A DNA stretch of 64,000 nt from Bryobacterales bacterium (GTDB taxonomy: Bacteria; Acidobacteriota; Terriglobia; Bryobacterales; UBA6623), in the NCBI GenBank assembly GCA_965204435.1, contig OZ241997.1, positions 4,899,212 to 4,963,211 of the forward strand, given 5' to 3'. Made by a program: the position numbers and the translations under genes. The notes under the pieces were generated by a model. The model had not been told where the DNA came from, made no database searches, and saw nothing but the letters and a program-made list of their open reading frames with translations. Numbering within the stretch: position 1 is the first letter of the stretch; each line of letters starts with the position of its first letter. This document shows positions 5,488 through 42,827 of this stretch, piece after piece.

Positions 5488-5863
5488 GGGCTGCTTGCGC
5501 TGCTGCCCGCGCTCAAGGCTCTAAGGGTGGGCGCCTGCGCGGCGACGCGCGTGACGCGGGGTCCAGCTCTGCTCCTTATTGTCCCATCTTCGCTAGATTC
5601 CTTGTCTCGCCCTAAGGTTGCCGATTGGGTCAAGTTTCAACGCCGAAGTGCCGCTGGCGTCGGTTGGCGGCGAAGCGTGGCCAGACTCCTTGCTGCAAGT
5701 CTCTCGCCGCTCGTGCCCTGCGCGGGCGGGCGAAGCCCGGCGTTGCGCTGGCAACAGCGACACGATCAGCTCGCCAGCCGGGCGGCCCCGGCCAGTCCTG
5801 GCACGGCGGCTGTATACTCAGCACCGTAGGCGTTCACGCTCGGTTGCGTGCCGCAGATCAACG

Positions 5864-29880: not shown

Positions 29881-29982
29881 TCTGCGAGTTATCGCACAAC
29901 CACCGCTCGTTTGTCCAGCCCCTCTCCTAACTCCTTATGAAATCCGGCCCTCGCTATCGGACATTGAAAAGCCCTGGAGTCT

Positions 29983-29997
29983 TGGGGACTTGCTTGC
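29983..29997 (+). promoter_or_regulatory. candidate sigma-54 -24/-12 element upstream of the TonB-dependent receptor
   Basis: TGGGGA-CTTGC-TTGC has the spacing of TGGCAC-N5-TTGC, with GG and GC conserved. It lies about 60 nt upstream of ATG 30057. Only 7 of 10 consensus positions match. Confidence 0.2.
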
Positions 29998-30056
29998 GAC
30001 GCCCTGATCGATGCGCTAAGATATTGGAACTTGGTATGCCAACAGTGAGGTGTTCA

Positions 30057-33000
30057 ATGTCATTCATTAAACATGCTTTAGTGCTAGTCGTGGCTATGTG
30101 CGGAGTCTTGGTGCCCGCGTCCGCGCAGGATACTGCCACCCTGAGCGGCCAGGTCAACGACGAATCCGGTCTGGGCGTTCCGAACGCGCGGGTCACGGCC
30201 AGCAACCTCTCTACCGGCGGCGAGGAACGTGGTTCGACGGACGGTGCGGGTGCGTACGAGTTGACGCTGGATCCGGGCACGTACTCGATCGTGGTCGAGA
30301 GTCCCGGTTTCGAAGCGGCGATTGCCGATGGTGTCGAACTGGCAGCTGGCCAGTCCGTCGAGCGAAATTTCAGCCTCGAGGTGGCCGCTGTCACCGAGAC
30401 TGTCGTGGTCGTCGGCAGCCGCGCTGCACCCCGCTCGGTGATCGAGTCCACAGTGCCCGTCGACGTCATCAGCACCTCCGACCTTGGTCGGCAGGGGAGC
30501 AGAGATCTGGTCAGCCAGCTGCGGACCGTGATCCCGTCGTTCAACATAAACACCCAGCCGATCAGCGATGCGGCGACGGTGGTCCGGCCGGCGAACTTGC
30601 GCAATCTCGCGCCCGACCACACGCTCGTCTTGGTCAACGGAAAGCGCCGCCACCGGGCGGCGGTTATCACGTGGCTGGGCAATGGCATCGCGGACGGCTC
30701 GCAAGGGCCGGATATCTCTGTCATCCCGTCGATCGCGATCCGGCAGGTCGAGGTTCTGCGGGATGGCGCGGCGGCCCAGTACGGATCCGACGCCATCGCG
30801 GGCGTGATGAACTTTCAGCTGAAGGATGACCCCTCGGGCGGCAGTTTCGAGATCCAGACCGGGGCCTTCAGGGATGCCAATCCTGGGGACCCGTCTACAT
30901 GCGGGGCCGGCATCATCGGTGATATCCAGCACTCGTGCAACGGAATCGGCGGACATGGCAGGACGCTTTCCATTGCTGGCAATATCGGAGTGCCGCTGGG
31001 AGATAACGGCTTCGGCAACTTCAGCATGGAGGTCGCCAACGCCGCGCCGACCAGCCGCTCGATCCAGCGCAACGATGCGGCGGGCATCATTGGCGCGGGC
31101 AATGGCAACATCCGCAATCCTGCGCAGATTTGGGGATCGCCGAGGATCAACCACGACGTGAAGTTGTTCGGGAATTTCGGGTACCAGCTTTCTGATAGTT
31201 TGCAGCTGTACGGCCACACCAACTACTTGACACGCAAGGTGACGGGCGGGTTCTACTTCCGGAACCCACATACCCGCGGCGGTGTCTTCCGCGGTCCGAA
31301 GCTCGAGGATGGAACGCCCTCGCTGCTCGTGGGTGACCGGGTATGGGCCGAGCAGTCTCCCGAAGGCGGGCCGCCCCCAGGCCGCGAAAAAGGCGTCGGC
31401 TGCCCTTTCATTCCGATCGTGAACAACGTTCCGGATGCGGACGCACTCGCGGCGGTCGAGGCCGACCCGAACTGCTTCACCCTCTACAGCCGGTTTCCCG
31501 GAGGCTTTACGCCGCAGTTCGGCGGGGACCTGATCGACTATTCAATCGTCGCCGGTCTGCGAGGGTTCGCGCAGAACGGGTTTGCTTGGGACGCGAGCGT
31601 CAGCAGGGGCACCAGCGAGATTGACCAGTTCATCTTCGACACTGTCAATGCGTCAATCGGATCCGATACGCCGACATCATTCCGGCCAGGCATCTACCGA
31701 CAGGACGAAACCAACCTGAACTTCGACGTCTCCATGCCGGTCAGCGATCTCGTCCACGTGGCCGCTGGCGGTGAGTGGAGGCGGGAGGAGTTCACAATCG
31801 GGGCGGGCGATGACGCGTCGTGGCAGATCGGTCCATATGCGGCGCAGGGCTTCAGTTCCGGCTCGAACGGCTTCAACGGCTATCGTGCCGACACGACGGC
31901 AGGGAAGTGGGAACGCCAGAACGTTGCCATGTACGGCGACGTTGAGTTCTCCCAGCCGGGCCGGTGGACGTTCGGCACCGCCGTCAGATTCGAGAACTTC
32001 GACGATTTCGGCAGCACGGTCAACGGCAAGGTCTCGGGCCGGGTCAAGGTCACTGATGTGCTGGCGGTGCGCGGCGCGGCCAGCACCGGCTTCCGAGCAC
32101 CGACGCCCGGGCAGCAGAACGCGTTCAACGTGACGACGGCATTCATCGGCGGGCAGCTGACCAACAACGGCGTTGTTCCCGCGACCTCGGCAGTCGCCAT
32201 GGCGCGCGGCGGCGGCCAGCTCCAACCGGAAAAATCGTTCAACATGAGCGGCGGTGCCGTGATCGAGAAGGGCGCGTTCACCTTTACGGCAGACTTCTTC
32301 CGGGTCAGGATCGAAGATCGCGTTGCTTTGTCACAGGAAGTTGCCCTGACGGAACCCGAGATCGAGACGTTGCTGGCGGAAGGGATTCCGGAAGCGCGGA
32401 ACTTCCCCGTGTTCCGGTTCTTCCTCAACGATTTCACGACATTGACGCAAGGCGTTGACTTGATTTCAACGTATGCCGCAGGCAACACCACGATCAGCGC
32501 GGTCTTCAACTACACGGACACGCAGCTTCGAGACATTCAATCGTCGGTGATCGACGAGTTCCGTATCACTACGCTGGAACAGGGGCTGCCGAACACTCGC
32601 TGGACCATCAGCGCCACTCACGATGCCCGCCGCTGGGACCTGCTGGCGCGGGTGAACTACTTCGGCAAGTTCTGGGACAGCGAGGACGGGCGGAACGCGG
32701 TTGGCTTGCCCGGCGGGCCGACGGCGGCGGCGCTATACCCATCCTACGCGGGCAGGGCGCTGGTGGATATCGAGTTCGGGGTGCCGATCGGACCCAACGT
32801 GCATCTGGCGGTGGGCGGAGAGAACATCTTCAACACCTATCCCGAAGTAAACCAGTTCGGCGCGATGACAGTCGGCAACATGTACGGACAGTTCTCGCCG
32901 TTCGGCTTCAACGGCGCGAACTTCTACGTGCGGCTCAACTACGGTTGGGGCTCGAGCCGCCCGGGGCGGGGCACTCGTGCGGAATCGACGCCTGAGCTCG

Positions 33001-33335
33001 ATCCCCTCCGGAAGCGCCAAGAGGTTGCCGAGAAGATCGAGGACCTCGACGCCCTGCACGACGAGTTGATCGACCTGTTGAGGGCCAAGCAGGAAGCGCA
33101 GACCGATCTGTGGCTGAAGCGCTGGGCCGGGGACAAGCTGGAAGAGGCGCTGAGGGCGAAGGAGCGCGACATGGAGATGCTGCGGGCCGCCTTGGCGAGG
33201 CGAGGCTTTGGCGACGAAGTCGAGCCGATCGGAAGAACTGCCGAATTGAAGCAGCATCACGTCAAGGGCCAGATCGCAGCCGCCAACCGGCAAGAGCAGC
33301 CCGTCATGGCCGCTGCCTCGGTGCTCGCGCCGTAA
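30057..33335 (+). CDS. TonB-dependent receptor (CarboxypepD_reg + plug + barrel) with a 128-aa C-terminal extension
   Basis: ATG at 30057 follows GTGAGG. Signal peptide ALVLVVAMCGVLVPASAQ. CarboxypepD_reg region LSGQVNDESGLGVPNARVTA...GTYSIVVESPGF. Plug region VVGSRAAPRSVIESTVPVDVI...LVLVNGKRR. The barrel ends at ANFYVRLNYGW (32948). The frame then continues to 33335. Confidence 0.85.
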   Translation: MSFIKHALVLVVAMCGVLVPASAQDTATLSGQVNDESGLGVPNARVTASNLSTGGEERGSTDGAGAYELTLDPGTYSIVVESPGFEAAIADGVELAAGQSVERNFSLEVAAVTETVVVVGSRAAPRSVIESTVPVDVISTSDLGRQGSRDLVSQLRTVIPSFNINTQPISDAATVVRPANLRNLAPDHTLVLVNGKRRHRAAVITWLGNGIADGSQGPDISVIPSIAIRQVEVLRDGAAAQYGSDAIAGVMNFQLKDDPSGGSFEIQTGAFRDANPGDPSTCGAGIIGDIQHSCNGIGGHGRTLSIAGNIGVPLGDNGFGNFSMEVANAAPTSRSIQRNDAAGIIGAGNGNIRNPAQIWGSPRINHDVKLFGNFGYQLSDSLQLYGHTNYLTRKVTGGFYFRNPHTRGGVFRGPKLEDGTPSLLVGDRVWAEQSPEGGPPPGREKGVGCPFIPIVNNVPDADALAAVEADPNCFTLYSRFPGGFTPQFGGDLIDYSIVAGLRGFAQNGFAWDASVSRGTSEIDQFIFDTVNASIGSDTPTSFRPGIYRQDETNLNFDVSMPVSDLVHVAAGGEWRREEFTIGAGDDASWQIGPYAAQGFSSGSNGFNGYRADTTAGKWERQNVAMYGDVEFSQPGRWTFGTAVRFENFDDFGSTVNGKVSGRVKVTDVLAVRGAASTGFRAPTPGQQNAFNVTTAFIGGQLTNNGVVPATSAVAMARGGGQLQPEKSFNMSGGAVIEKGAFTFTADFFRVRIEDRVALSQEVALTEPEIETLLAEGIPEARNFPVFRFFLNDFTTLTQGVDLISTYAAGNTTISAVFNYTDTQLRDIQSSVIDEFRITTLEQGLPNTRWTISATHDARRWDLLARVNYFGKFWDSEDGRNAVGLPGGPTAAALYPSYAGRALVDIEFGVPIGPNVHLAVGGENIFNTYPEVNQFGAMTVGNMYGQFSPFGFNGANFYVRLNYGWGSSRPGRGTRAESTPELDPLRKRQEVAEKIEDLDALHDELIDLLRAKQEAQTDLWLKRWAGDKLEEALRAKERDMEMLRAALARRGFGDEVEPIGRTAELKQHHVKGQIAAANRQEQPVMAAASVLAP

Positions 33336-34167: not shown

Positions 34168-34227
34168 CTATGCTCGTCGCGGTCGATACCGAACACCCTC
34201 GATACCCTCGAAGTCCGCGTCCTGCGT
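34168..34227 (-). pseudogene. vapC: 3' fragment of vapC displaced by the RIT insertion
   Basis: The minus strand from 34227 reads acg cag gac gcg gac ttc gag ggt atc gag ggt gtt cgg tat cga ccg cga cga gca tag = TQDADFEGIEGVRYRPRRA*. This is the usual PIN C-terminus (T-x-D-x-D-F), in frame with ...AELW at 37961. Confidence 0.8.
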
Positions 34228-34315
34228 CCAGCATGGGAACCCTACGATTATGGGAACCTGCCTCCCGTAACCTGTTGGGTTACAAAGGCTTGGGGGTTGA
34301 CTAGGTTCCCATAAT
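34228..34315. repeat. RIT left terminal inverted repeat (IR-L)
   Basis: ccagcatgggaaccctacgattatgggaacctgcctcccgtaacctgttgggttacaaaggcttgggggttgactaggttcccataat is the reverse complement of 37847-37934 apart from one mismatch (34305 versus 37857). Confidence 0.95.
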
Positions 34316-34316
34316 G

Positions 34317-35354
34317 CTAGCGCTCTGCCGAGTCTCCAACCGCTGCGACGTCTCCGAGCATGGCGAGGAGTTCGTCGTGCACGCCATCAAAGGATCCCTT
34401 GCGGAGGTTCGGCGGCTGCCGAGCTGACAGGATGTCGAGCTTGTTGGCCGGGTCCACCCGCAGGTACATTTCGGTCGACTGCAGACTGGCATGGCCAAGC
34501 CAGAGGGCGACCTGCCGTATGTCGCCGGTTGCCTCGAGCGTATTGAGAGCACAGGCGTGCCTCAATGCGTGTGGCGTGACGGCCTTGCTCGCGATTGAAG
34601 GCATCGTGTGTCCCGCGGTTTCCGCGTGCAGGGTGAGTCTCTTGGCAAAGCCGCGTCGCGTCATGCCGGTACCGAATGCATTCAGAAAGAGATGCTGGTC
34701 GGTACCATTTGGACGGACATGGAGCCATTTGCGTAGCGCGCTGCGGGTTTGCTTCCACAGCGGCAGGACGCGCCCGCGGCGTCCCTTGCCCATCACCCGG
34801 ATGCTGTCGAGTCCCGGCGCCTTGAGGTCTTCCAGGGCAAGGCCAACCAACTCCGAGACCCGCAGGCCGGCATTGTAGGTCAGGCACAGCATCGCACGAT
34901 CCCGCAAGCCGGTGACGGTGTCGGCAGCGGGGGCATCGAGCAAGGCCTGGACCTCGGCATGGTTGAGATACTCGACCGGCGGCAGATCACCTTTCTTCTG
35001 CGGCAAGGCATGCACCTGAGCCGCTAGGTCGAGGCACTCAGGATGTCGGAATTCCAGATAGCGGAAGAAGGACTTGATCGCAGCCAGACGGGCATTGCGG
35101 GTCCGCACGCCATTGTTCCGGTCCGCCTCGAGATGATCGAGGAAGGCGAGCAACGTCGTCGTGTCGAGATGCCCGACCTCCAACTGGCACGGTCGGACCT
35201 TGTGCCGCCGTGCTGCGAAGACTGCCAGGAGCTTGAAGCTGGCGACGTAGCTCTCAATGGTATGTGGGCTAGAGCCGCGATCGCGCGGCAGGTACTCCCT
35301 GAGGAAGCGCGCCAGAGGCCGTGCGAGATCACTCATCGTCCGTCCTCCCGGCAC
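34317..35354 (-). CDS. tyrosine recombinase, third gene of the trio (RitC position)
   Basis: 345 aa with a SAM-like N-domain (HTIESYVASFKLL). The catalytic region has LRVSELVGL, HALRHACALNTL and LGHASLQSTEMYLRV. The stop lies 1 nt from IR-L. Confidence 0.9.
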   Translation of the reverse strand: MPGGRTMSDLARPLARFLREYLPRDRGSSPHTIESYVASFKLLAVFAARRHKVRPCQLEVGHLDTTTLLAFLDHLEADRNNGVRTRNARLAAIKSFFRYLEFRHPECLDLAAQVHALPQKKGDLPPVEYLNHAEVQALLDAPAADTVTGLRDRAMLCLTYNAGLRVSELVGLALEDLKAPGLDSIRVMGKGRRGRVLPLWKQTRSALRKWLHVRPNGTDQHLFLNAFGTGMTRRGFAKRLTLHAETAGHTMPSIASKAVTPHALRHACALNTLEATGDIRQVALWLGHASLQSTEMYLRVDPANKLDILSARQPPNLRKGSFDGVHDELLAMLGDVAAVGDSAER

Positions 35355-36273
35355 GCAGTCGTTCGGTGGCCGCAGACACTTGGTTCAGCAAGACAGGCGT
35401 CGCCTCGAGGTACCAGTAGGTATCGGTGGGTTTCGCATGGCCGAGATAGGTGGACAGCGCGAGCATGTGACGGCTGATCTGCCTCCGATCGCGGGACACG
35501 ACGCCCTCCAGAGCGCGCGCCGCGAAGCCATGGCGAAGATCATGGAGGCGCGGACCGGGCTCGTCCCGTCCCCCGCGCAGTCCGAGCTGACGCGCTAGCC
35601 GGATAAAGGTATGGGTCAGATGATCGGGGCTGACTGGACGGCCAGTGGCGAGAACGAAGAAATGGTCGCCCGGGCTGCCGCATCGCAAGCGGATCTCCAG
35701 GTACCGGTCCAGTGCTGCCCGTACGCTCTCATGCAGGGGCACGAGCCGCTGCTTGCCGAATTTGGCAGTGCGAATCCGCAGTCCGTCTTGCGTGAAATCC
35801 TCGAGTTTCAGGCCGATGGCCTCCGCACGCCGCAGACCGGTCGCTGCGAGCAGCCCGATGATGTGGTGGAAGGTCACGGGTGTGATGGAGCCGGCGGGCG
35901 GCAGTTCCAGAGCCGCATCCATGACCTGCCGGACTTCCGCCAACGACAGCAGCCGGGGCGGTGGCCGGTGACGCGTCGCCCGGCCAAGGGCATCCCTGTG
36001 GGGAATCTCGTGCCGTTCGTCCTCGGCATACAGATAGTCGGCCAACCCGCGGACGAGCAGAAGCCGCCGGCGTTTCTGCTGGGGCGACGCTGCCTGCGAC
36101 GCCCAGGCGAGAACGGTTTCGACACGAATGAATCGGTCGCCTCGAGCCTCGGCATGAGCGGCAAAGCCGCCAAGAATCTGCTCTGGTTCCTGAAAGGACA
36201 GACCGGTGGCGCGCTTGAAGGCGACATATGAGATGACGTGGTCGGTCAGGGTCATCCGAGTTCTCCCGGCCAA
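35329..36273 (-). CDS. tyrosine recombinase, second gene of the trio (RitB position)
   Basis: 314 aa with GLRRAEAIGL, LHDLRHGFAARAL and LGHAKPTDTYWYLEA. It overlaps both neighbours (26 nt and 22 nt). Confidence 0.9.
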   Translation of the reverse strand: MAGRTRMTLTDHVISYVAFKRATGLSFQEPEQILGGFAAHAEARGDRFIRVETVLAWASQAASPQQKRRRLLLVRGLADYLYAEDERHEIPHRDALGRATRHRPPPRLLSLAEVRQVMDAALELPPAGSITPVTFHHIIGLLAATGLRRAEAIGLKLEDFTQDGLRIRTAKFGKQRLVPLHESVRAALDRYLEIRLRCGSPGDHFFVLATGRPVSPDHLTHTFIRLARQLGLRGGRDEPGPRLHDLRHGFAARALEGVVSRDRRQISRHMLALSTYLGHAKPTDTYWYLEATPVLLNQVSAATERLRAGRTDDE

Positions 36274-37799
36274 GGCTGAGCCAGATCGAGAAGCATCGGA
36301 ACATCCACGCGAGCGTAGATTGCCGTCGTCTTGATGGATTGGTGGCGCAGTAGAGCACCGACGGCCTCCAGAGAAATTCCGGCGCGCAGCAGGTGGGTGG
36401 CTCTGGAGTGGCGGAACAGATAGGCGGCGGGGAGGCCGTCATTGACGACCCCGATTCGTTTCATCGCGCGTCGCACGATGGAGCCGACTGCCGAACTGGA
36501 CAAGCGAGCGTGAGGAGCGAGGGACCGCAGGAACACAGTTGCGCATTCGGTGCGTGGCCGCGCTCGCAAGATGTAGTCCTTGAGGGCATTGCCGGCTTCC
36601 TGCGACAGTGGCAGAGCCGCACTGCGGCGCGATTTCCCGTTGACCCTGATGAGCGCTTGCTCCCAGTCGAGATCGCCTAGCTGCAGGGCTGTAATGTCTG
36701 CGGGGCGCAGTGCGAGCCGTGCCAGTAGCAGCAGGACGGCCCGATCCCGCAATCCGATAGAGGTTGAAGTGTCGCAACTTGCGATCAGCGCCTCAATGTC
36801 CCCCTCCTCGACATACCGGGGTAACCGTGCCTCCGTCTGCTGGGAGATCGAAGGGACCGCACCAACAAGGCCAGGGCGGCACAGCCCCTGCACCGCCAGG
36901 AACCGCAGATACGACCGCAGCGCTGTGGCCTCGTTCGCGATCTGGCCTCGCGAGTAGGATTCCGCACGGTTCAGAAAGGCAGTGCGGATCGACGCTGCAT
37001 CATAGGTCCCCGGACTATCGCCGAGCAGCAGCAACAGCCCTCGCAGGCAGCGGTCGTAGTTCCTCAACGTGATATCGCGGACGCCGCGATGACGGCGTAG
37101 CCAGCCGAGGAAGGCGTCGACATGGACGCCACGGCTCGCGCCTGGCACCGGATCGCGCCAGTCCGCAACCACACCTCGCTCGACTAGGAAGCTGGCAAAC
37201 CTTGCGAGCCTGGCCTCGGCGTCGCGGTTTCCGGAAAACGCATTGGGACGAGCGAAGAAGTGCGGATGCGCGCAAGCGCAGTCATGGTCGAGAAACCGCT
37301 GCAGGACGTCGCGGTCGAACTCTGCTAGTTCCAAGTTCGAGCGATACAGCCAAACAATGAAGTGTCGGCAGAGTGTCCGGTACGAACGAATTGTCGATGC
37401 TCGGTAACCTTGGGGCTTCAAGATGCCCGTGAACGCTTCCACGAGTCCACCGCCTGTGACAATCGCGGGCGGGACGGCCGCCAGACCGGTTTCGATCAGG
37501 TAGCCGAGAACACGATGCGCCTGCGATCTTGACCGCTCGTTCAGCTGGCTACGGAATTCGGCCGGACAGTCGCAGTCGTGGCTGAGAAAGCCGTCAACGC
37601 TGCGGATGTCCAGCGCCGCAACGTCCGATTCATTGACCGTTAGCCAAGCGACGATGTGCCGGGCTGTTCTTTTCAGATTGCTGAAGAGGCTGGCCGAATA
37701 GCCCCGGTCGTTCAGATGCGCCTCGTAGGCCGGAACAATCCGGTCGACATGCGCCTGGATGACCTCGGTTGACGCCCGAGGCGGGAAGGGTAGAGTCAT
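36252..37799 (-). CDS. tyrosine recombinase, first gene of the trio (RitA position)
   Basis: 515 aa with a long N-terminal region. The catalytic region has LALRPADITAL, FRHSRATHLLRAG and LRHQSIKTTAIYARV. The RBS AGGAG lies 7 nt upstream. Confidence 0.9.
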   Translation of the reverse strand: MTLPFPPRASTEVIQAHVDRIVPAYEAHLNDRGYSASLFSNLKRTARHIVAWLTVNESDVAALDIRSVDGFLSHDCDCPAEFRSQLNERSRSQAHRVLGYLIETGLAAVPPAIVTGGGLVEAFTGILKPQGYRASTIRSYRTLCRHFIVWLYRSNLELAEFDRDVLQRFLDHDCACAHPHFFARPNAFSGNRDAEARLARFASFLVERGVVADWRDPVPGASRGVHVDAFLGWLRRHRGVRDITLRNYDRCLRGLLLLLGDSPGTYDAASIRTAFLNRAESYSRGQIANEATALRSYLRFLAVQGLCRPGLVGAVPSISQQTEARLPRYVEEGDIEALIASCDTSTSIGLRDRAVLLLLARLALRPADITALQLGDLDWEQALIRVNGKSRRSAALPLSQEAGNALKDYILRARPRTECATVFLRSLAPHARLSSSAVGSIVRRAMKRIGVVNDGLPAAYLFRHSRATHLLRAGISLEAVGALLRHQSIKTTAIYARVDVPMLLDLAQPWPGELG

Positions 37800-37846
37800 G
37801 ATTCATCTCCTGTGCTGGTAAGAAACCAACAGAAGATGACAAGACA

Positions 37847-37934
37847 ATTATGGGAATCTAGTCAACCCCCAAGCCTTTGTAACCCAACAGGTTACGGGAG
37901 GCAGGTTCCCATAATCGTAGGGTTCCCATGCTGG
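37847..37934. repeat. RIT right terminal inverted repeat (IR-R)
   Basis: Reverse complement of 34228-34315 (87/88 identical). The ORF track independently shows the same peptide, AWEPYDYGNLPPVTCWVTKAWGLTRFP, in ORFs on opposite strands at the two sites. Confidence 0.95.
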
Positions 37935-37937
37935 GTT

Positions 37938-37957
37938 ATATCGGAACGTTCCGATAT
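37938..37957. repeat. perfect 20-bp palindrome abutting IR-R
   Basis: atatcggaac|gttccgatat. It lies in the 26 bp (37935-37960) between IR-R and the vapC junction. There is no counterpart at the left end. Confidence 0.9.
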
Positions 37958-37960
37958 CAT

Positions 37961-38278
37961 CCACAGTTCCGCGCCGTACTTGCGGGCCGTCGCGAGGATG
38001 ATACTGTCGGCCAGAGGCAGCTTCAGATCGACACTTAGCGCCGCCGCGCTCACAGCAAGCTCCGCCCCCAGCTCCGCGACAGTTCCCTGTTGCATGGCCG
38101 CCATCGCTTGAAGTGCTGCGCTCTCGCCGCGTTGCTGGAGCACCCGCTTGAACACTTCGAAGAGACTTATCGTGGGGACCACAAGGGCCTCGATGTCTTC
38201 GATCGGTTCCGCAAAGAAGGAGGCGTTTGCCCCATCGGCAAGATACTCCAGCCAGGCGCTGGAATCGACGACATTCAT
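37961..38278 (-). pseudogene. vapC: 5' part of the PIN-domain toxin gene vapC, interrupted by the RIT element
   Basis: MNVVDSSAWLEYL...VPTISLFEV...LPLADSIILATARKYGAELW is PIN-like. The ORF called at 37892-38278 continues as MISERSDITQHGNPTIMGTCLP, which is encoded by the palindrome and IR-R. Confidence 0.8.
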
Positions 38279-38481
38279 ACCCGGTCTGCCGCGCGTTCAA
38301 CGCTCGTGTCGAGTCCCTTCAAAGAACCTCTCAGCTCCCGCATCGGTCGCACAGGAATCAGCTCGATGCGGTCGCCATAGGCGATCGCTTGGATCTTCTG
38401 GCCCGGCAGGAGGCAGAGCTGATCCCGGATCTGCTTAGGAATCACGACTTGGTACTTGGGGGAAATGGTCACTGTTGCCAC
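38275..38481 (-). CDS. vapB: AbrB/MazE/SpoVT-family antitoxin
   Basis: 68 aa. ATVTISPKYQVVIPKQIRDQLCLLPGQKIQAIAYGDRIELIP is a SpoVT-AbrB swapped-hairpin motif. The GTG start follows GGAG. The stop overlaps the vapC start (ATGA). Confidence 0.8.
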   Translation of the reverse strand: MATVTISPKYQVVIPKQIRDQLCLLPGQKIQAIAYGDRIELIPVRPMRELRGSLKGLDTSVERAADRV

Positions 38482-39377: not shown

Positions 39378-42300
39378 CTAGAACGTGATCCGCAACCCGA
39401 GCTGCATGATGCGCCGGCTGTTGGGCAGGGTGTTCGTCACCAAGCCGAACGTGCCGCTGCCGAGCGACGTGTTGGGGATATTGAAGGCGGGCGTGTTGGC
39501 TGCGTCGTACGCCTCCCAGCTGAAGCGGGCGCGCCAATTCTCGCCCCAGCGGAAGTTCTTGGCAAGCATGACATCAAAGTTGATCCGCATGGGTCCGCGA
39601 ATGCCGGGCAGCGTCCGCCCCGCGTCGCCGAGCGTGAACGGCGCCGGATTCTCGAATGCGGCCTCGTTGAGCCAGTTGTGCCCGATCACTCCGTCCGCCG
39701 CTTGCTTTTGAGTCGAAGACTTGAAGGGAGCACCCGTGAGGTTCGGCCTCAGGGCGACGCCAGCGGCTAGATCTCCGCGCAAGTTGCCTCCGCCGTCTAT
39801 GTTCACGCCCATGTAGCCGCCGCTGCGAACCGTCCCTACGGTCGACAGCTGCCAGCCGCCGGCCACTGCGTCAAGCACCTTGTTCCAACTCGACCCCCAG
39901 CGGCGGTTCCTGCCGAATGGCAGTTCAAAGATTGGGGCAAACACTATGCGGTGCGGCAGTCGGTTCACCGAACTGGAACGCTCGTCGCTGAGGTCGTAGA
40001 TGTTCTGGGGATTGTCGTTGTCGCCGAACGTGTCGCCGTCGCCGATGAAACGAATGTTGTCAATCCACTGAATGTGTGTGTAGGCAACGGTCCAGCCCAG
40101 TCCGTTCTGGTAGCGTTTCTCCGACTTGAAGGTGAGCGCGTAGTAGTTCGAGATGCCCCAGTTCGGTGACATCAGCTGGATCTGGTCTTGATTCCCCTGC
40201 CAAGCCACCCATGGCCGGAAGTCCTCGATGTTCGCTCCCGGCGCATTGGCCGCTGCGAGATGTTCGGGGCGGATATGGTTGATGTTGAGGTTGTTGATCG
40301 CTTGGTGGCGGGCCAGAGCGCCCATGAACCCGAAGTCCCAGAGCACGCCCTTCCAACGCGTCTGCAACGTCAAGTTGAAGTTCTGCGAATAGGGCAGCAC
40401 TCGATCTTGGTTCCAGAACTGAATGGTGGACGTCTCGAAGCGCGTGCCTACCGCGCCGAAGCCTCCATGCAACTCGGATTCGGGTATGTCGTCCAAGGCG
40501 CCTGCCGGGACGCCATCGCGCAGGTAGCCGCTCAAGCCTCCGCGTACGCGGAAGATGTTGTCGAATCCGGCCCGACCCGGCTGGATGGAGTTGCGGTCGT
40601 AGGGATTGCCGAAGAAGATCCCGAAGCCGCCGCGCAGCACCATCGAGCTATCGTCCTTGAGTCGGTAGGCGAAGCCGAAGCGCGGCGCGAAATTGTTCTT
40701 GTCCCACTGCCAGAGGTACTTGCCGGTGCCGTCGCGATTCGGGAAGAGCACCCTCCCGATCGCGCCTTCGGGGATTCCGTTCTGGCCAGCCAGCGGATGC
40801 GGGCAGTACTCGCAGAAGCCGTTCATGCGTCCCCCCACTTCGTAAATCGGGGTCTCTGTCTCGTAGCGCAGGCCGATGTTCAGCGTCAGGCGCTGGGTAG
40901 CTCGCCAATCGTCTTGGAAGAATCCCGACCAATACTTGATCCGCTTGCCGATTCCGGGCGCGACGCGCGTGTCGAGATTCCACACACGCCCGAGCATAAA
41001 GTCGGCAAAGGCAACGCCCGTGTTGTTGTTGCGCCCTCCTCCCGACAGTTTCCACTCGCCGGTTAGGTGGCCCGTCGACCGCCAGTGTCCGGAGGGCTGG
41101 GGACGGCTGACCTCATTGCCTTGGTAGGACGTGTACTTCCCGCCGAACTTGAAGGTGTGGTTACCCCTGATCTTGGTGAAGTTGGCTTCGTAGTCGAAGT
41201 TGGTGAAGACCGCGAACCGGTGGGCGTTGCCCAAGGCGCCGATCCACGACATCGGCACGCCGCGGCCACCCCCGAAGTTAAAGCGCGGGAAGACCTCGCC
41301 GCCTTTTTCGAGGCCGGGAATGCCAAAATGATCGGCGTAGTTTGTATCGCAGCAATCTCCCGATTTCCTGTCTACCGAGACTCGATTGAACCCGATGATC
41401 GATGTGACGAAGAATGTCGGGTTGAAGGTGTAGGTATTGTTGAGGCCCCAGTTCTGGCGGCGGTTCAGGATTGCAATTCCCCCCGGATCCGCGATCCCGT
41501 ATCCCTGGGTGTAGTCGGTCACCGTGTCATCCGGCTCGGTCAGGATCATGCGCATGAAGGTGCGCCACTTGTCCGAGTAGTTGTGATCCAACCGAAACGT
41601 GTGGTAGTCGCGATTGCGCGCCCGGTCGGCGGCCTCGCGCCAATTACCTGCGAGGTTGTTTAGGTTGTTCGGCACACGGTTGGGGTCCGGTATGTAGCTG
41701 GCTGCCTTGACCGCCACCGGGTCCAAGCGATCCACGGGGATCGTGTTGTCTGGGAATGGGGATGCTCCCCGGGGTCTGGTGAACGATCCGCCTTGGCGCG
41801 TCATGGGGTCATAGATTGGCACGAACACCGCCCGCCCGCCCGCGTTGCGAGTGGCGCGCGAGAAGTTGCCGGTTCGGAATTCTGGCAGGCCGACATTGCG
41901 CGTGCGAATCAAGCCGAGCTTCTCTCGAAAGACGTCGATGTTATAGAAGAAGAACGTCTTGTTCTCGGCAATTGGGCCGCCGATCGAGATGCCGCCGTTG
42001 TTGCGCCGAAGCTTGGGCTTGGCGTCTTGGTTCCACCCGGCTGCGTCGAAGGCGTCGTTGCGCACGAAGTGGTAGATGCTGCCGTTCCAGCTGTTCGTGC
42101 CGCTGCGAGTGAGTGCCTGCACCACGCCCGCCGAGCTGCGGCCGTATTCGGCACCCATCGAGTTGACCTCCACCTTGAACTCTTGCATCGAGTCGACAGG
42201 TGGGGCCATCTCGATATTCTGTACGCCTAGCCCGCCCCGCGTGTTGTTCACGCCGTCAATGTAGGATCCCGTCGAGCGGGAGCGGCCCCCTCCAATGGAA

Positions 42301-42827
42301 ACGTACCCATTCGACTCGGAGCGGGATGCGCCGGGCACCAAGTTCACGAGGTTAAAAATGTCGCGGTTCGGTAGCGGCAGCTCTTGAATCTGTTCCGTGG
42401 CGACGGTACCACCAACCGAACCGGAGGTGGTCTGGACCTGAAGCTGTTCCGCGTTGACCTCGACTGTCTCGGTCACCGCACCGATCTCCAGCGCGAACGA
42501 CTGCGTGATTTCTGACGCCACGTTGAGGCGCAGGCCGCGTACCTCGGCTGACTTGAAGCCATCGGCCGAGGCAGAGATGTTGTACTCGCCCGGTGGCATG
42601 TTGGGCACGGCGTAGACGCCGTTGATGCCGGTCTCGGAGGGAGTCTCCACGCCGGTCTCGGCGTTGACGATTGAGATCTGCGCACCGGGAATCACTGCCC
42701 CGGTGGCGTCGCTTACGGTCCCGTTGATCGTGCCAGCCGCACCTTGGCCCCATGCGAGGGCCGGCAGCAGCACCGCCAATGTCCACCCTGCGAACAGGCG
42801 GACCTTCAATCCTTGATTAGCTCTCAT
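39378..42827 (-). CDS. CarboxypepD_reg-domain TonB-dependent-receptor-like outer membrane protein
   Basis: 1149 aa. Signal peptide LAVLLPALAWGQGA. INGTVSDATGAVIPGAQISIVNAETG...PGEYNISASADGF. Plug-like region VEVNAEQLQVQTTSGSVGGTV...LPLPNRD. It ends with the canonical MQLGLRITF. Confidence 0.85.
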   Translation of the reverse strand: MRANQGLKVRLFAGWTLAVLLPALAWGQGAAGTINGTVSDATGAVIPGAQISIVNAETGVETPSETGINGVYAVPNMPPGEYNISASADGFKSAEVRGLRLNVASEITQSFALEIGAVTETVEVNAEQLQVQTTSGSVGGTVATEQIQELPLPNRDIFNLVNLVPGASRSESNGYVSIGGGRSRSTGSYIDGVNNTRGGLGVQNIEMAPPVDSMQEFKVEVNSMGAEYGRSSAGVVQALTRSGTNSWNGSIYHFVRNDAFDAAGWNQDAKPKLRRNNGGISIGGPIAENKTFFFYNIDVFREKLGLIRTRNVGLPEFRTGNFSRATRNAGGRAVFVPIYDPMTRQGGSFTRPRGASPFPDNTIPVDRLDPVAVKAASYIPDPNRVPNNLNNLAGNWREAADRARNRDYHTFRLDHNYSDKWRTFMRMILTEPDDTVTDYTQGYGIADPGGIAILNRRQNWGLNNTYTFNPTFFVTSIIGFNRVSVDRKSGDCCDTNYADHFGIPGLEKGGEVFPRFNFGGGRGVPMSWIGALGNAHRFAVFTNFDYEANFTKIRGNHTFKFGGKYTSYQGNEVSRPQPSGHWRSTGHLTGEWKLSGGGRNNNTGVAFADFMLGRVWNLDTRVAPGIGKRIKYWSGFFQDDWRATQRLTLNIGLRYETETPIYEVGGRMNGFCEYCPHPLAGQNGIPEGAIGRVLFPNRDGTGKYLWQWDKNNFAPRFGFAYRLKDDSSMVLRGGFGIFFGNPYDRNSIQPGRAGFDNIFRVRGGLSGYLRDGVPAGALDDIPESELHGGFGAVGTRFETSTIQFWNQDRVLPYSQNFNLTLQTRWKGVLWDFGFMGALARHQAINNLNINHIRPEHLAAANAPGANIEDFRPWVAWQGNQDQIQLMSPNWGISNYYALTFKSEKRYQNGLGWTVAYTHIQWIDNIRFIGDGDTFGDNDNPQNIYDLSDERSSSVNRLPHRIVFAPIFELPFGRNRRWGSSWNKVLDAVAGGWQLSTVGTVRSGGYMGVNIDGGGNLRGDLAAGVALRPNLTGAPFKSSTQKQAADGVIGHNWLNEAAFENPAPFTLGDAGRTLPGIRGPMRINFDVMLAKNFRWGENWRARFSWEAYDAANTPAFNIPNTSLGSGTFGLVTNTLPNSRRIMQLGLRITF

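Follow-up and report, generated by a model that had tools for sequence, protein, structure and literature searches.

RIT elements are transposons with three tyrosine recombinase genes in the order ritA, ritB and ritC, joined by an ATGA overlap and an 8-bp overlap; they measure about 3.5–3.7 kb, are flanked by inverted repeats (IRs), are multicopy and often lie inside other mobile elements (Van Houdt 2009, 2012, PMC3414803; Ricker 2013). They are widespread in bacteria, occur on plasmids and genomic islands and disrupt genes, and their ends have been called variable (PMC3414803, PMC10214605). Descriptions of these ends range from 34-bp terminal inverted repeats (PMC10214605) and imperfect palindromic repeats of 47–51 bp (PMC5737581) to short IRs, an ‘overlapping palindromic sequence’ and ‘variation at the ends’ (PMC3414803, PMC5737581, PMC10214605). 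The reason why three recombinases are carried is not known (PMC3414803, PMC10214605). In this study, we analyzed 64,000 nt of contig OZ241997.1 from a Bryobacterales bacterium (this whole stretch is referred to as the window), in which a RIT transposon of 3,733 bp with ritA-ritB-ritC and 88-bp IRs splits a vapC toxin gene. The element shares all the above features of gene order, overlaps and size and represents a new RIT family member, found in an Acidobacteriota (Bryobacterales-like) genome; its clade differs from the described RITs in having IRs of 88 bp and a RitA of 515 aa, both of them longer. A perfect 20-bp palindrome, here called P, stands 6 bp from one IR tip and is lacking at the other. 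The mobile unit is more than the segment from one IR to the other: in ritA orientation it reads X'-P-X-IR-ritA-ritB-ritC-IR', where X' and X are 6-mers. The same layout in dozens of distant relatives suggests that the 6-bp spacers are the place where the RIT family recombines, and we lean, with moderate confidence, towards P being a pair of recombinase half-sites and the 6-mers being the crossover regions of core-type sites for tyrosine recombinases. The one-sided palindrome at 6 bp, the three related 6-mers, the placement on either side and the spacer-like targets are not in PMC3414803, PMC5737581 or PMC10214605, while Ricker 2013 may contain part of this.

Several other systems invite comparison. 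Transposons of the Tn554/SE type are also driven by tyrosine recombinases and make no target-site duplication. They carry along a 6-bp sequence from their previous site, so that the 6-mers at the two junctions can differ (PMC10214605). A parallel is seen here: the 6-mers beside P and at the far tip are TGGATG and TGGACG in the window, and GCGAGG and GCCCGG in a relative (locus L004). On the other hand, the Tn554/SE proteins (TnpA/B/C or IntA/Tfp/IntB/Srap) are set apart from Rit by description, and these elements are strongly site-specific (att554), whereas the RIT targets studied here share a similar 6-mer alone. To our knowledge, Tn554/SE elements have neither long inverted repeats nor an end palindrome. 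Core-type sites such as loxP, FRT, dif and the lambda attP core consist of inverted arms around an overlap region of 6–8 bp that must match between partners. The RIT segment made of a P arm, 6 bp and the IR tip has exactly that form, but the RIT would have two such sites back to back sharing P, an extra direct repeat and an inverted copy further inside, and three recombinases instead of one or two. Integron attC sites, the CTX phage attP and telomere resolvases (TelK, ResT) are similar in that related enzymes act on palindromic or hairpin DNA and that the RIT junction region is a long palindrome; however, the Rit proteins have no telomere-resolvase domain and a single-stranded or hairpin intermediate of RITs is a proposal only. 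Inversion switches (Fim, shufflons) resemble RITs in having an IR-bounded segment in both orientations at one locus and differ in that the invertible segment of a RIT is the transposon itself, with no regulated gene evident.

The inserted block and its one-sided palindrome

The ends of the element and the interrupted gene have the following parts, listed from left to right with coordinates in the window.

34168..34227, minus strand: 3' fragment of vapC severed by the insertion (translation TQDADFEGIEGVRYRPRRA-stop); the frame resumes at 34227
34225..34230, no strand: spacer 3, CGTCCA on the plus strand and TGGACG in ritA orientation; the target's own 6-mer at the palindrome-free IR tip
34231..34315, plus strand: IR-L, on the ritC side, with repeat DR1 GCATGGGAACC (34231-34241), repeat DR2 TTATGGGAACC (34248-34258) and inverted copy GGTTCCCATAA (34304-34314)
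37847..37931, minus strand: IR-R, on the ritA side, with inverted copy TTATGGGAATC (37848-37858), DR2 (37904-37914) and DR1 (37921-37931)
37932..37937, no strand: spacer 2, TGGGTT on the plus strand and AACCCA in ritA orientation, between the IR-R tip and P; this 6-bp distance is found in all related loci
37938..37957, no strand: palindrome P, ATATCGGAAC followed by GTTCCGATAT, two inverted copies of a variant of the IR repeat
37958..37963, no strand: spacer 1, CATCCA on the plus strand and TGGATG in ritA orientation; the element's own 6-mer on the outer side of P, the last four bases of which also belong to the target
37961..38278, minus strand: 5' part of vapC, 106 codons, PIN domain (Pfam); in the occupied allele the frame enters the element and stops at 37892

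An earlier note on this DNA, made from its letters, had described 88-nt IRs with one mismatch between the arms and a perfect 20-bp palindrome, ATATCGGAACGTTCCGATAT, at 37938-37957, and both were confirmed, with IR arms at 34228-34315 and 37847-37934. With up to 3 mismatches tolerated, P still has no second match in the window, and 0 of 100 shuffles gave a match. The 9-mer ATGGGAACC, which the note had counted three times in each IR, is exact at 34233, 34250 and 34304 (minus strand) in IR-L and at 37904 and 37921 (both minus strand) in IR-R, and the inner IR-R copy at 37850 is indeed ATGGGAATC and not the exact 9-mer. These five exact copies, all within the IRs, are the only ones in 64 kb, where about 0.5 would be expected by chance on both strands.

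Excising the 3,733 bp in silico yields a VapC of 125 aa that is 100% identical to an uninterrupted database protein (P0121), and dozens of further 125-aa homologues with 90–98% identity are named VapC of Bryobacterales or Acidobacteriia. The DNA of two empty alleles (L172 and L173) reads ...GGAACTGTGGACGCAGGAC... and is identical to the vapC of the window around the junction, where TGGACG is present once (...GGCGCGGAACTG TGGACG CAGGACGCGGAC..., that is GAACTG TGGACG CAGGAC). The earlier note had pointed to 26 extra bp (37935-37960) with no counterpart at the left end and had raised the possibility that they derive from the target. The asymmetry is real, removal of the insertion restores an intact VapC, and the 26 bp belong to the element and not to the target because the empty alleles with a 100% identical VapC lack them; retaining them in the reconstruction disrupts the vapC reading frame. 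An origin of the 26 bp in some vapC alleles or in a duplication made upon insertion is thus refuted by the empty sites and can be dismissed with near certainty, even though TGGA (in ritA orientation) stands at both junctions. As this motif (TCCA on the plus strand) is present at 34227-34230 as well as at 37960-37963, the limits of the element are ambiguous by 4 bp. The relatives favor 34231-37963 as the probable inserted block, a shift of 3 bp from the limits in the earlier note.

A second, independent pair of sites leads to the same picture. The empty site in L006 (minus strand) reads GGAGAAAC GCCCGG AAAGCCAC, and the occupied site in L004 reads ...GCGAGG-P-CCTCGC-RIT-GCCCGG.... P is absent from both verified empty sites (the vapC alleles for the window and L006 for L004), and thus arrived with the RIT. 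Comparison of the empty with the occupied sites shows no target duplication at either and an inserted block of X'-P-X-RIT that landed beside a spacer-like 6-mer. Mobility of the element as a unit is seen in the empty vapC alleles, in the paralogous empty site for L004 and in the multiple copies in the genomes of relatives. The metagenome contig L153 begins 7 nt before P and terminates precisely at the far IR tip, as would be expected of a collapsed repeat whose putative unit includes spacer 1 and not spacer 3.

Conservation of the ends, target choice and orientation

The comparison set comprised about 35 related RITs with RitA proteins 30–77% identical, from Acidobacteriota, Paracoccaceae, Gammaproteobacteria, Sphingobium, and gut and marine metagenomes. 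They were collected from genomes (45 loci), from metagenomes by means of the palindrome core, from plasmids and from a protein collection; the 16-mer scan of metagenomes gave many chance matches and those with an adjacent IR were kept. The best RitA match in the genome collection was 69% identical. Near-identical copies of the element were found neither by megablast against plasmids nor through proteins, as RitA, RitB and the 100%-identical cluster representative P0001 were linked to no contig.

Aligning the ends of other RITs, a check proposed in the earlier note, placed a 20-bp palindrome next to one IR tip, exactly 6 bp off, in about 35 loci. P is identical at 20/20 positions in the window, in L001 and in L175-177, in spite of diverged IRs and of RitA proteins that are only 68–69% identical; L169 and L170, whose RitA is 77% identical, have AGATGGGAACGTTCCCATCT instead. 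In more distant families, the arms of P change together with the IR repeat. The repeat is TTATGTTGAG and P is TTATGTTGAGCTCAACATAA in L040, and the repeat is TAATGCGCAGG and P is TTATGCGCAGCTGCGCATAA in L048 of Sphingobium; the same covariation is seen in L047 of Dinoroseobacter shibae (P is TTATCCAAAGCTTTGGATAA) and in several gut (P is TAATCGGAAC), termite and marine families. The central two bases of P vary freely (CG, TG, CA, AT). Covariation of the arms together with the fixed spacing argues that P represents two sites bound by proteins that the element itself encodes, and this comparison of sequences is strong evidence for P as a pair of putative recombinase half-sites.

The IRs themselves follow a fixed plan. 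Most complete relatives have IRs of about 90 bp with an 11-mer at the tip, another 17 bp inward (at position 18 in all but one case) and an inverted copy at positions 70–74. Repeat number, orientation and spacing are kept in every related family examined and the sequence between the repeats drifts. With three per IR and two in P, there are eight candidate 11-mer sites in a fixed geometry. The earlier note had taken the IRs for arrays of recombinase-binding sites and had included in them the motif GTAACC-N5-GGTTAC. The motif does exist at 34267-34283 in IR-L, but it is specific to the window's copy, as the aligned columns pair at 1–2 of 6 positions in L169, L001, L175, L177 and L179, and finding such a 6-bp inverted repeat with a short spacer in 88 bp is nothing out of the ordinary (about 0.2 per IR by a rough estimate). 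The triple-repeat array is conserved, behaves as binding sites would, and is the better candidate for a binding-site array.

Around P, relatives share the order flank, X', P, X, IR...IR', X', flank. Among the 31 palindromes listed, 24 have a symmetry that reaches 6–8 bp past P (17 of them exactly 6 bp), and all three 6-mers are the same (X being the reverse complement of X') in 23 of the 32 complete copies. The spacers vary between lineages, even within one genome (CGTGCA and ACGTCG), and are kept within the clade of the window (TGGATG, TGGCTG, TAGATG). The target 6-mer of the window, TGGACG, is retained at the far tip of the occupied site, and beside P stands TGGATG, which fills all three spacer positions in L169 and L170, the closest multicopy relatives (77% identical). 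Target and element 6-mers thus agree at 5 of 6 positions in the window (TGGACG/TGGATG) and at 4 of 6 in L004 (GCCCGG/GCGAGG), and by our own calculation the chance of both is about 2e-4. Overlap regions in tyrosine recombinase sites show such behavior. The geometry of inverted arms around 6 bp, formed by a P arm and the IR tip, is kept in about 35 loci. The earlier note had suggested that P could be the crossover or core site. Our comparison would put the crossover in the 6-bp spacers beside P and at the far IR tip, and nothing points to the center of P. A strand bias in spacer inheritance was also considered, as four loci have an element-like spacer beside P and a different one at the far tip (the latter verified as the target's in the window and L004 only); it was dropped, since four loci are too few and L175 contradicts it.

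P is not bound to one gene. The suggestion that it would always be found on the ritA-proximal side did not hold, as P adjoins ritA in 14 complete loci and ritC in 18. Six families of copies that share both flanks have the RIT in both orientations with P constant on one flank (L003/L006 versus L007/L036/L039; L009 versus L015; L013 versus L012/L033; L021 versus L022/L023; L169 versus L170; L177 versus L176). IR variants specific for the ritA side or the ritC side travel with their gene, and therefore the switch points lie at or near the tips. The asymmetry of P (a central TG or CA, or the arm mismatch in L009/L015) is reversed in 5 of 6 ritC-adjacent copies relative to 9 ritA-adjacent copies in the same genomes. 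Homologous recombination between the IRs cannot reverse P.

Other arrangements of the palindrome and the RIT end were also observed. ‘Solo’ P-type palindromes with 6-bp symmetric flanks and no RIT are present in L051, L122, L132, L147 and other metagenome contigs; in a gut/termite family they lie inside the larger symmetry CTGCTTG-N6-P-N6-CAAGCAG, and RIT-bearing copies of this family share its CTGCTTG on the side of the palindrome. Solo copies may represent footprints, landing pads or target motifs. A different P-like palindrome, TTACCGGAACGTTCCGGTAA, adjoins the far IR tip of L069, about 3.7 kb from P, and it looks as if the RIT had inserted in the palindrome of another element. The RIT end also seems to attract a 2.6-kb unit of the IS91 family (a 284-aa integrase and a Y2/zinc-finger transposase), which is located exactly at the border of the spacer between P and the IR tip. 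The order is P-X-unit-IR in L020 (3193-5813) and L031 and, with the unit inverted, P-unit-X-IR in L025 (3187-5813), while a truncated IS91-like copy in L017 (3554; 5790-5812) ends at the palindrome center. In L047 (4240-4440, a trio on pDSHI01) and L048 (4170-4360, one Sphingobium trio) a palindrome and an IR-like array stand upstream of ritA, but a matching IR is lacking after ritC; the two resemble each other in the sequence preceding the palindrome (AACTCG...ATGTTT), and such trios may have become fixed or domesticated inside a larger element. L001 (9400-10500; Bryobacterales, from the species-representative genome set) has the palindrome and the ritA-side IR, lacks a ritC-side IR and has a recombinase gene on the opposite strand after ritC.

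Recombinase genes and chromosomal surroundings

Between the IRs are three recombinase genes and no fourth accessory gene, and an antitoxin gene precedes vapC.

34317..35336, minus strand: ritC, tyrosine recombinase, Pfam Phage_integrase (2.3e-30) and a SAM-like domain; its ATG overlaps the end of ritB by 8 bp (ATGAGTGA)
35329..36255, minus strand: ritB, tyrosine recombinase, Pfam Phage_integrase (2.3e-17); its ATG overlaps the ritA stop codon (ATGA)
36252..37799, minus strand: ritA, tyrosine recombinase of 515 aa; Pfam matches, with a tandem N-terminal duplication followed by SAM-like and catalytic domains
38275..38481, minus strand: vapB-type antitoxin gene (MazE/AbrB-like) upstream of vapC, Pfam MazE_antitoxin; the gene pair is also present at the empty site L172

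The catalytic R, H-x-x-R, H and Y residues are kept in all three Rit proteins, as read from the translations. In RitA, residues ~1-226 (37120-37799) contain a module of about 90 aa that is tandemly duplicated and has the common motif FL(S/D)HDC-C (BLASTP E 3e-12); the second copy is weakly SAM-like (E 0.003). RitA may hence carry three DNA-binding modules, as predicted from these matches. Two core-binding domains have been described for RitA (Smyshlyaev 2021, PMC8138268). Neither Pfam nor NCBIfam has Rit-specific models, and Rit proteins match Xer-like models below the cut-offs. The Rit homologues form conserved trios in all loci fetched.

The vapBC pair and the RIT are located between two large genes (29937-33335 and 39378-42827 in the window) in ordinary chromosomal surroundings. 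Of these, at least the one adjacent to vapB (1,149 aa) carries the annotation TonB-dependent receptor/CarboxypepD_reg-type outer-membrane protein at the empty site. RITs of the window's clade are found inside mobile or toxin genes, namely an rve-type insertion sequence (IS) transposase, an IS with DUF4372 and DDE_Tnp_1, and vapC (L169/L170, L174-L177 and the window), and the IS::RIT composites of this clade are themselves multicopy.

A proposed crossover model and rival explanations

In the model that we favor, the three 11-bp repeats of each IR would be recombinase-binding sites and P would be two more, placed head to head. Three crossover sites would result: the flank, X' and the outer P arm (site 1); the other P arm, X and the IR tip, which would form a complete site of two inverted arms around a 6-bp spacer (site 2); and the IR' tip, X' and the flank (site 3). 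Sites 1 and 3 would be half-sites and site 2 a full one. As direct repeats, sites 1 and 3 could recombine to excise P, X and the RIT as a circle, and the circle junction would consist of two back-to-back core sites, IR' tip-X'-P arm followed by P arm-X-IR tip, either of which could then recombine with a spacer-like genomic 6-mer. Sites 2 and 3 are inverted, and recombination between them would flip the RIT in place. The extra N-terminal modules of RitA may read the closely spaced repeats at the tip. The anatomy with its conservation and covariation, the empty sites, the two orientations and the spacer relationships were observed directly in the sequences; protein binding, cleavage positions and the circular intermediate are parts that we infer. 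The model would account for the one-sided P on either side and for an asymmetry of P that flips with the RIT, for the lack of a target duplication with the element's spacer beside P and the target 6-mer at the far tip, and for the three 6-mers being alike in most copies. The reversal of P in 5 of 6 copies would be exactly the pattern predicted for excision of P, X and the RIT as a circle and re-integration via the other back-to-back core site, and the exception, L039, could come from a simple inversion between the inner and far spacers.

A number of observations weigh against this model. No contig with the predicted circle junction IR'-X'-P-X-IR was found, nor any locus with P between two IR tips; the 3.6-kb contig L180 breaks inside the IRs and is uninformative on circle or hairpin junctions. 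Exonuclease-protected RIT DNA has been reported without circular junction reads, and hairpin intermediates were proposed (Nielsen 2017, PMC5737581). RIT transposition has never been reproduced in the laboratory (PMC10214605). A plain circle, IR'-X'-IR, already has a full core site, and the need for P is therefore unexplained by the model, and solo palindromes are not produced by conservative recombination among the three sites. The window's own three spacers differ (TGGATG, TGGGTT, TGGACG), and therefore this copy may recombine poorly. In L175 (2450-2482 and the far tip), the outer and far spacers are TGGATA and the inner one is TAGATG, which is opposite to the pattern of the window and L004; the placement of the 6-mers thus follows no simple rule. 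Many of the copies with shared flanks are not independent events. Finally, P is not universal among RITs, an idea that was rejected since L046 of Mesorhizobium, with 34-bp IRs, has no palindrome.

The symmetry around P can also be read as a signal for folding, in which X'-P-X forms a hairpin or cruciform and serves as a single-stranded hairpin substrate or as a junction that is cut into closed hairpin ends. In the version of this explanation that resembles telomere resolution, the RIT moves via a hairpin-ended linear or dumbbell intermediate. A circle junction that includes P would form a single long and perfect palindrome, as a replicated hairpin telomere does, and the exonuclease-enriched RIT DNA without a circular junction (Nielsen 2017, PMC5737581) also speaks for folding. 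In most relatives the symmetry spans P and both spacers, 32 bp in all, and the predicted DNA hairpins reach -15.3 kcal/mol in L169 and -17.1 kcal/mol in L021 (z-scores -6 and -7), but the window's spacers do not pair and its hairpin is predicted at -7.6 kcal/mol. The Rit proteins group with Xer and integron-type ‘simple’ tyrosine recombinases (PMC8138268), and Xer and integron-integrase matches were found here; however, the domain matches are Phage_integrase, SAM-like and Xer-like alone, with nothing resembling a telomere resolvase. The truncated IS91-like copy that ends at the center of P in L017 counts in favor of folding, and the free variation of the central two bases counts against it. 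Core sites in duplex DNA explain the spacer homology and the orientations without any folding. We consider a hairpin signal unlikely but not negligible. The most specific form, in which the three recombinases process the palindromic junction IR'-X'-P-X-IR as a cruciform or hairpin into exonuclease-resistant hairpin-ended linear or dumbbell DNA and P is the fused hairpin tips, is more doubtful still.

P could instead be an independent 20-bp unit made of two end tips, a micro-element or landing pad recognized by the RIT recombinases and beside which RITs insert. The solo palindromes (L051, L132, L122, L147), the second P-like palindrome at the far IR tip in L069 and the fact that P keeps to its flank when the RIT flips all lend themselves to this explanation. 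It is at odds with the absence of P from both verified empty sites, with the X'-P-X block shared by different insertion sites in one genome (L003, L004, L027) and with the position of P within the repeat unit on contig L153, and we regard it as improbable. An even smaller chance is given to P being an operator of the rit operon, a terminator or a chance remnant, with the orientation switched by homologous recombination between the IRs. Near-identical inverted repeats of 88–98 bp can indeed invert the segment between them in this way, and P is upstream of ritA in the window, but in about half of the loci P lies beside ritC and therefore has no fixed relation to a promoter; a promoter and terminator scan gave nothing above background. 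A chance origin is incompatible with arms that covary across clades and with a spacing of exactly 6 bp, and a P that flips with the RIT cannot arise from recombination between the IRs. The half-site and spacer reading of P and the 6-mers is the one that we retain, at the level of confidence given above.

The eight 11-mers, the one-sided palindrome and the three 6-bp crossover regions are candidates for functional sites at the level of base pairs, and similarity to the element's own 6-mer may be a rule of target choice. The orientation families would be natural evidence that the RIT flips and re-inserts. If the hairpin intermediate were true, it would represent a pathway of transposition by tyrosine recombinases that is related to telomere resolution. 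The layout described here makes the RIT mechanism testable with a few constructs and could help annotators to delimit RITs precisely.

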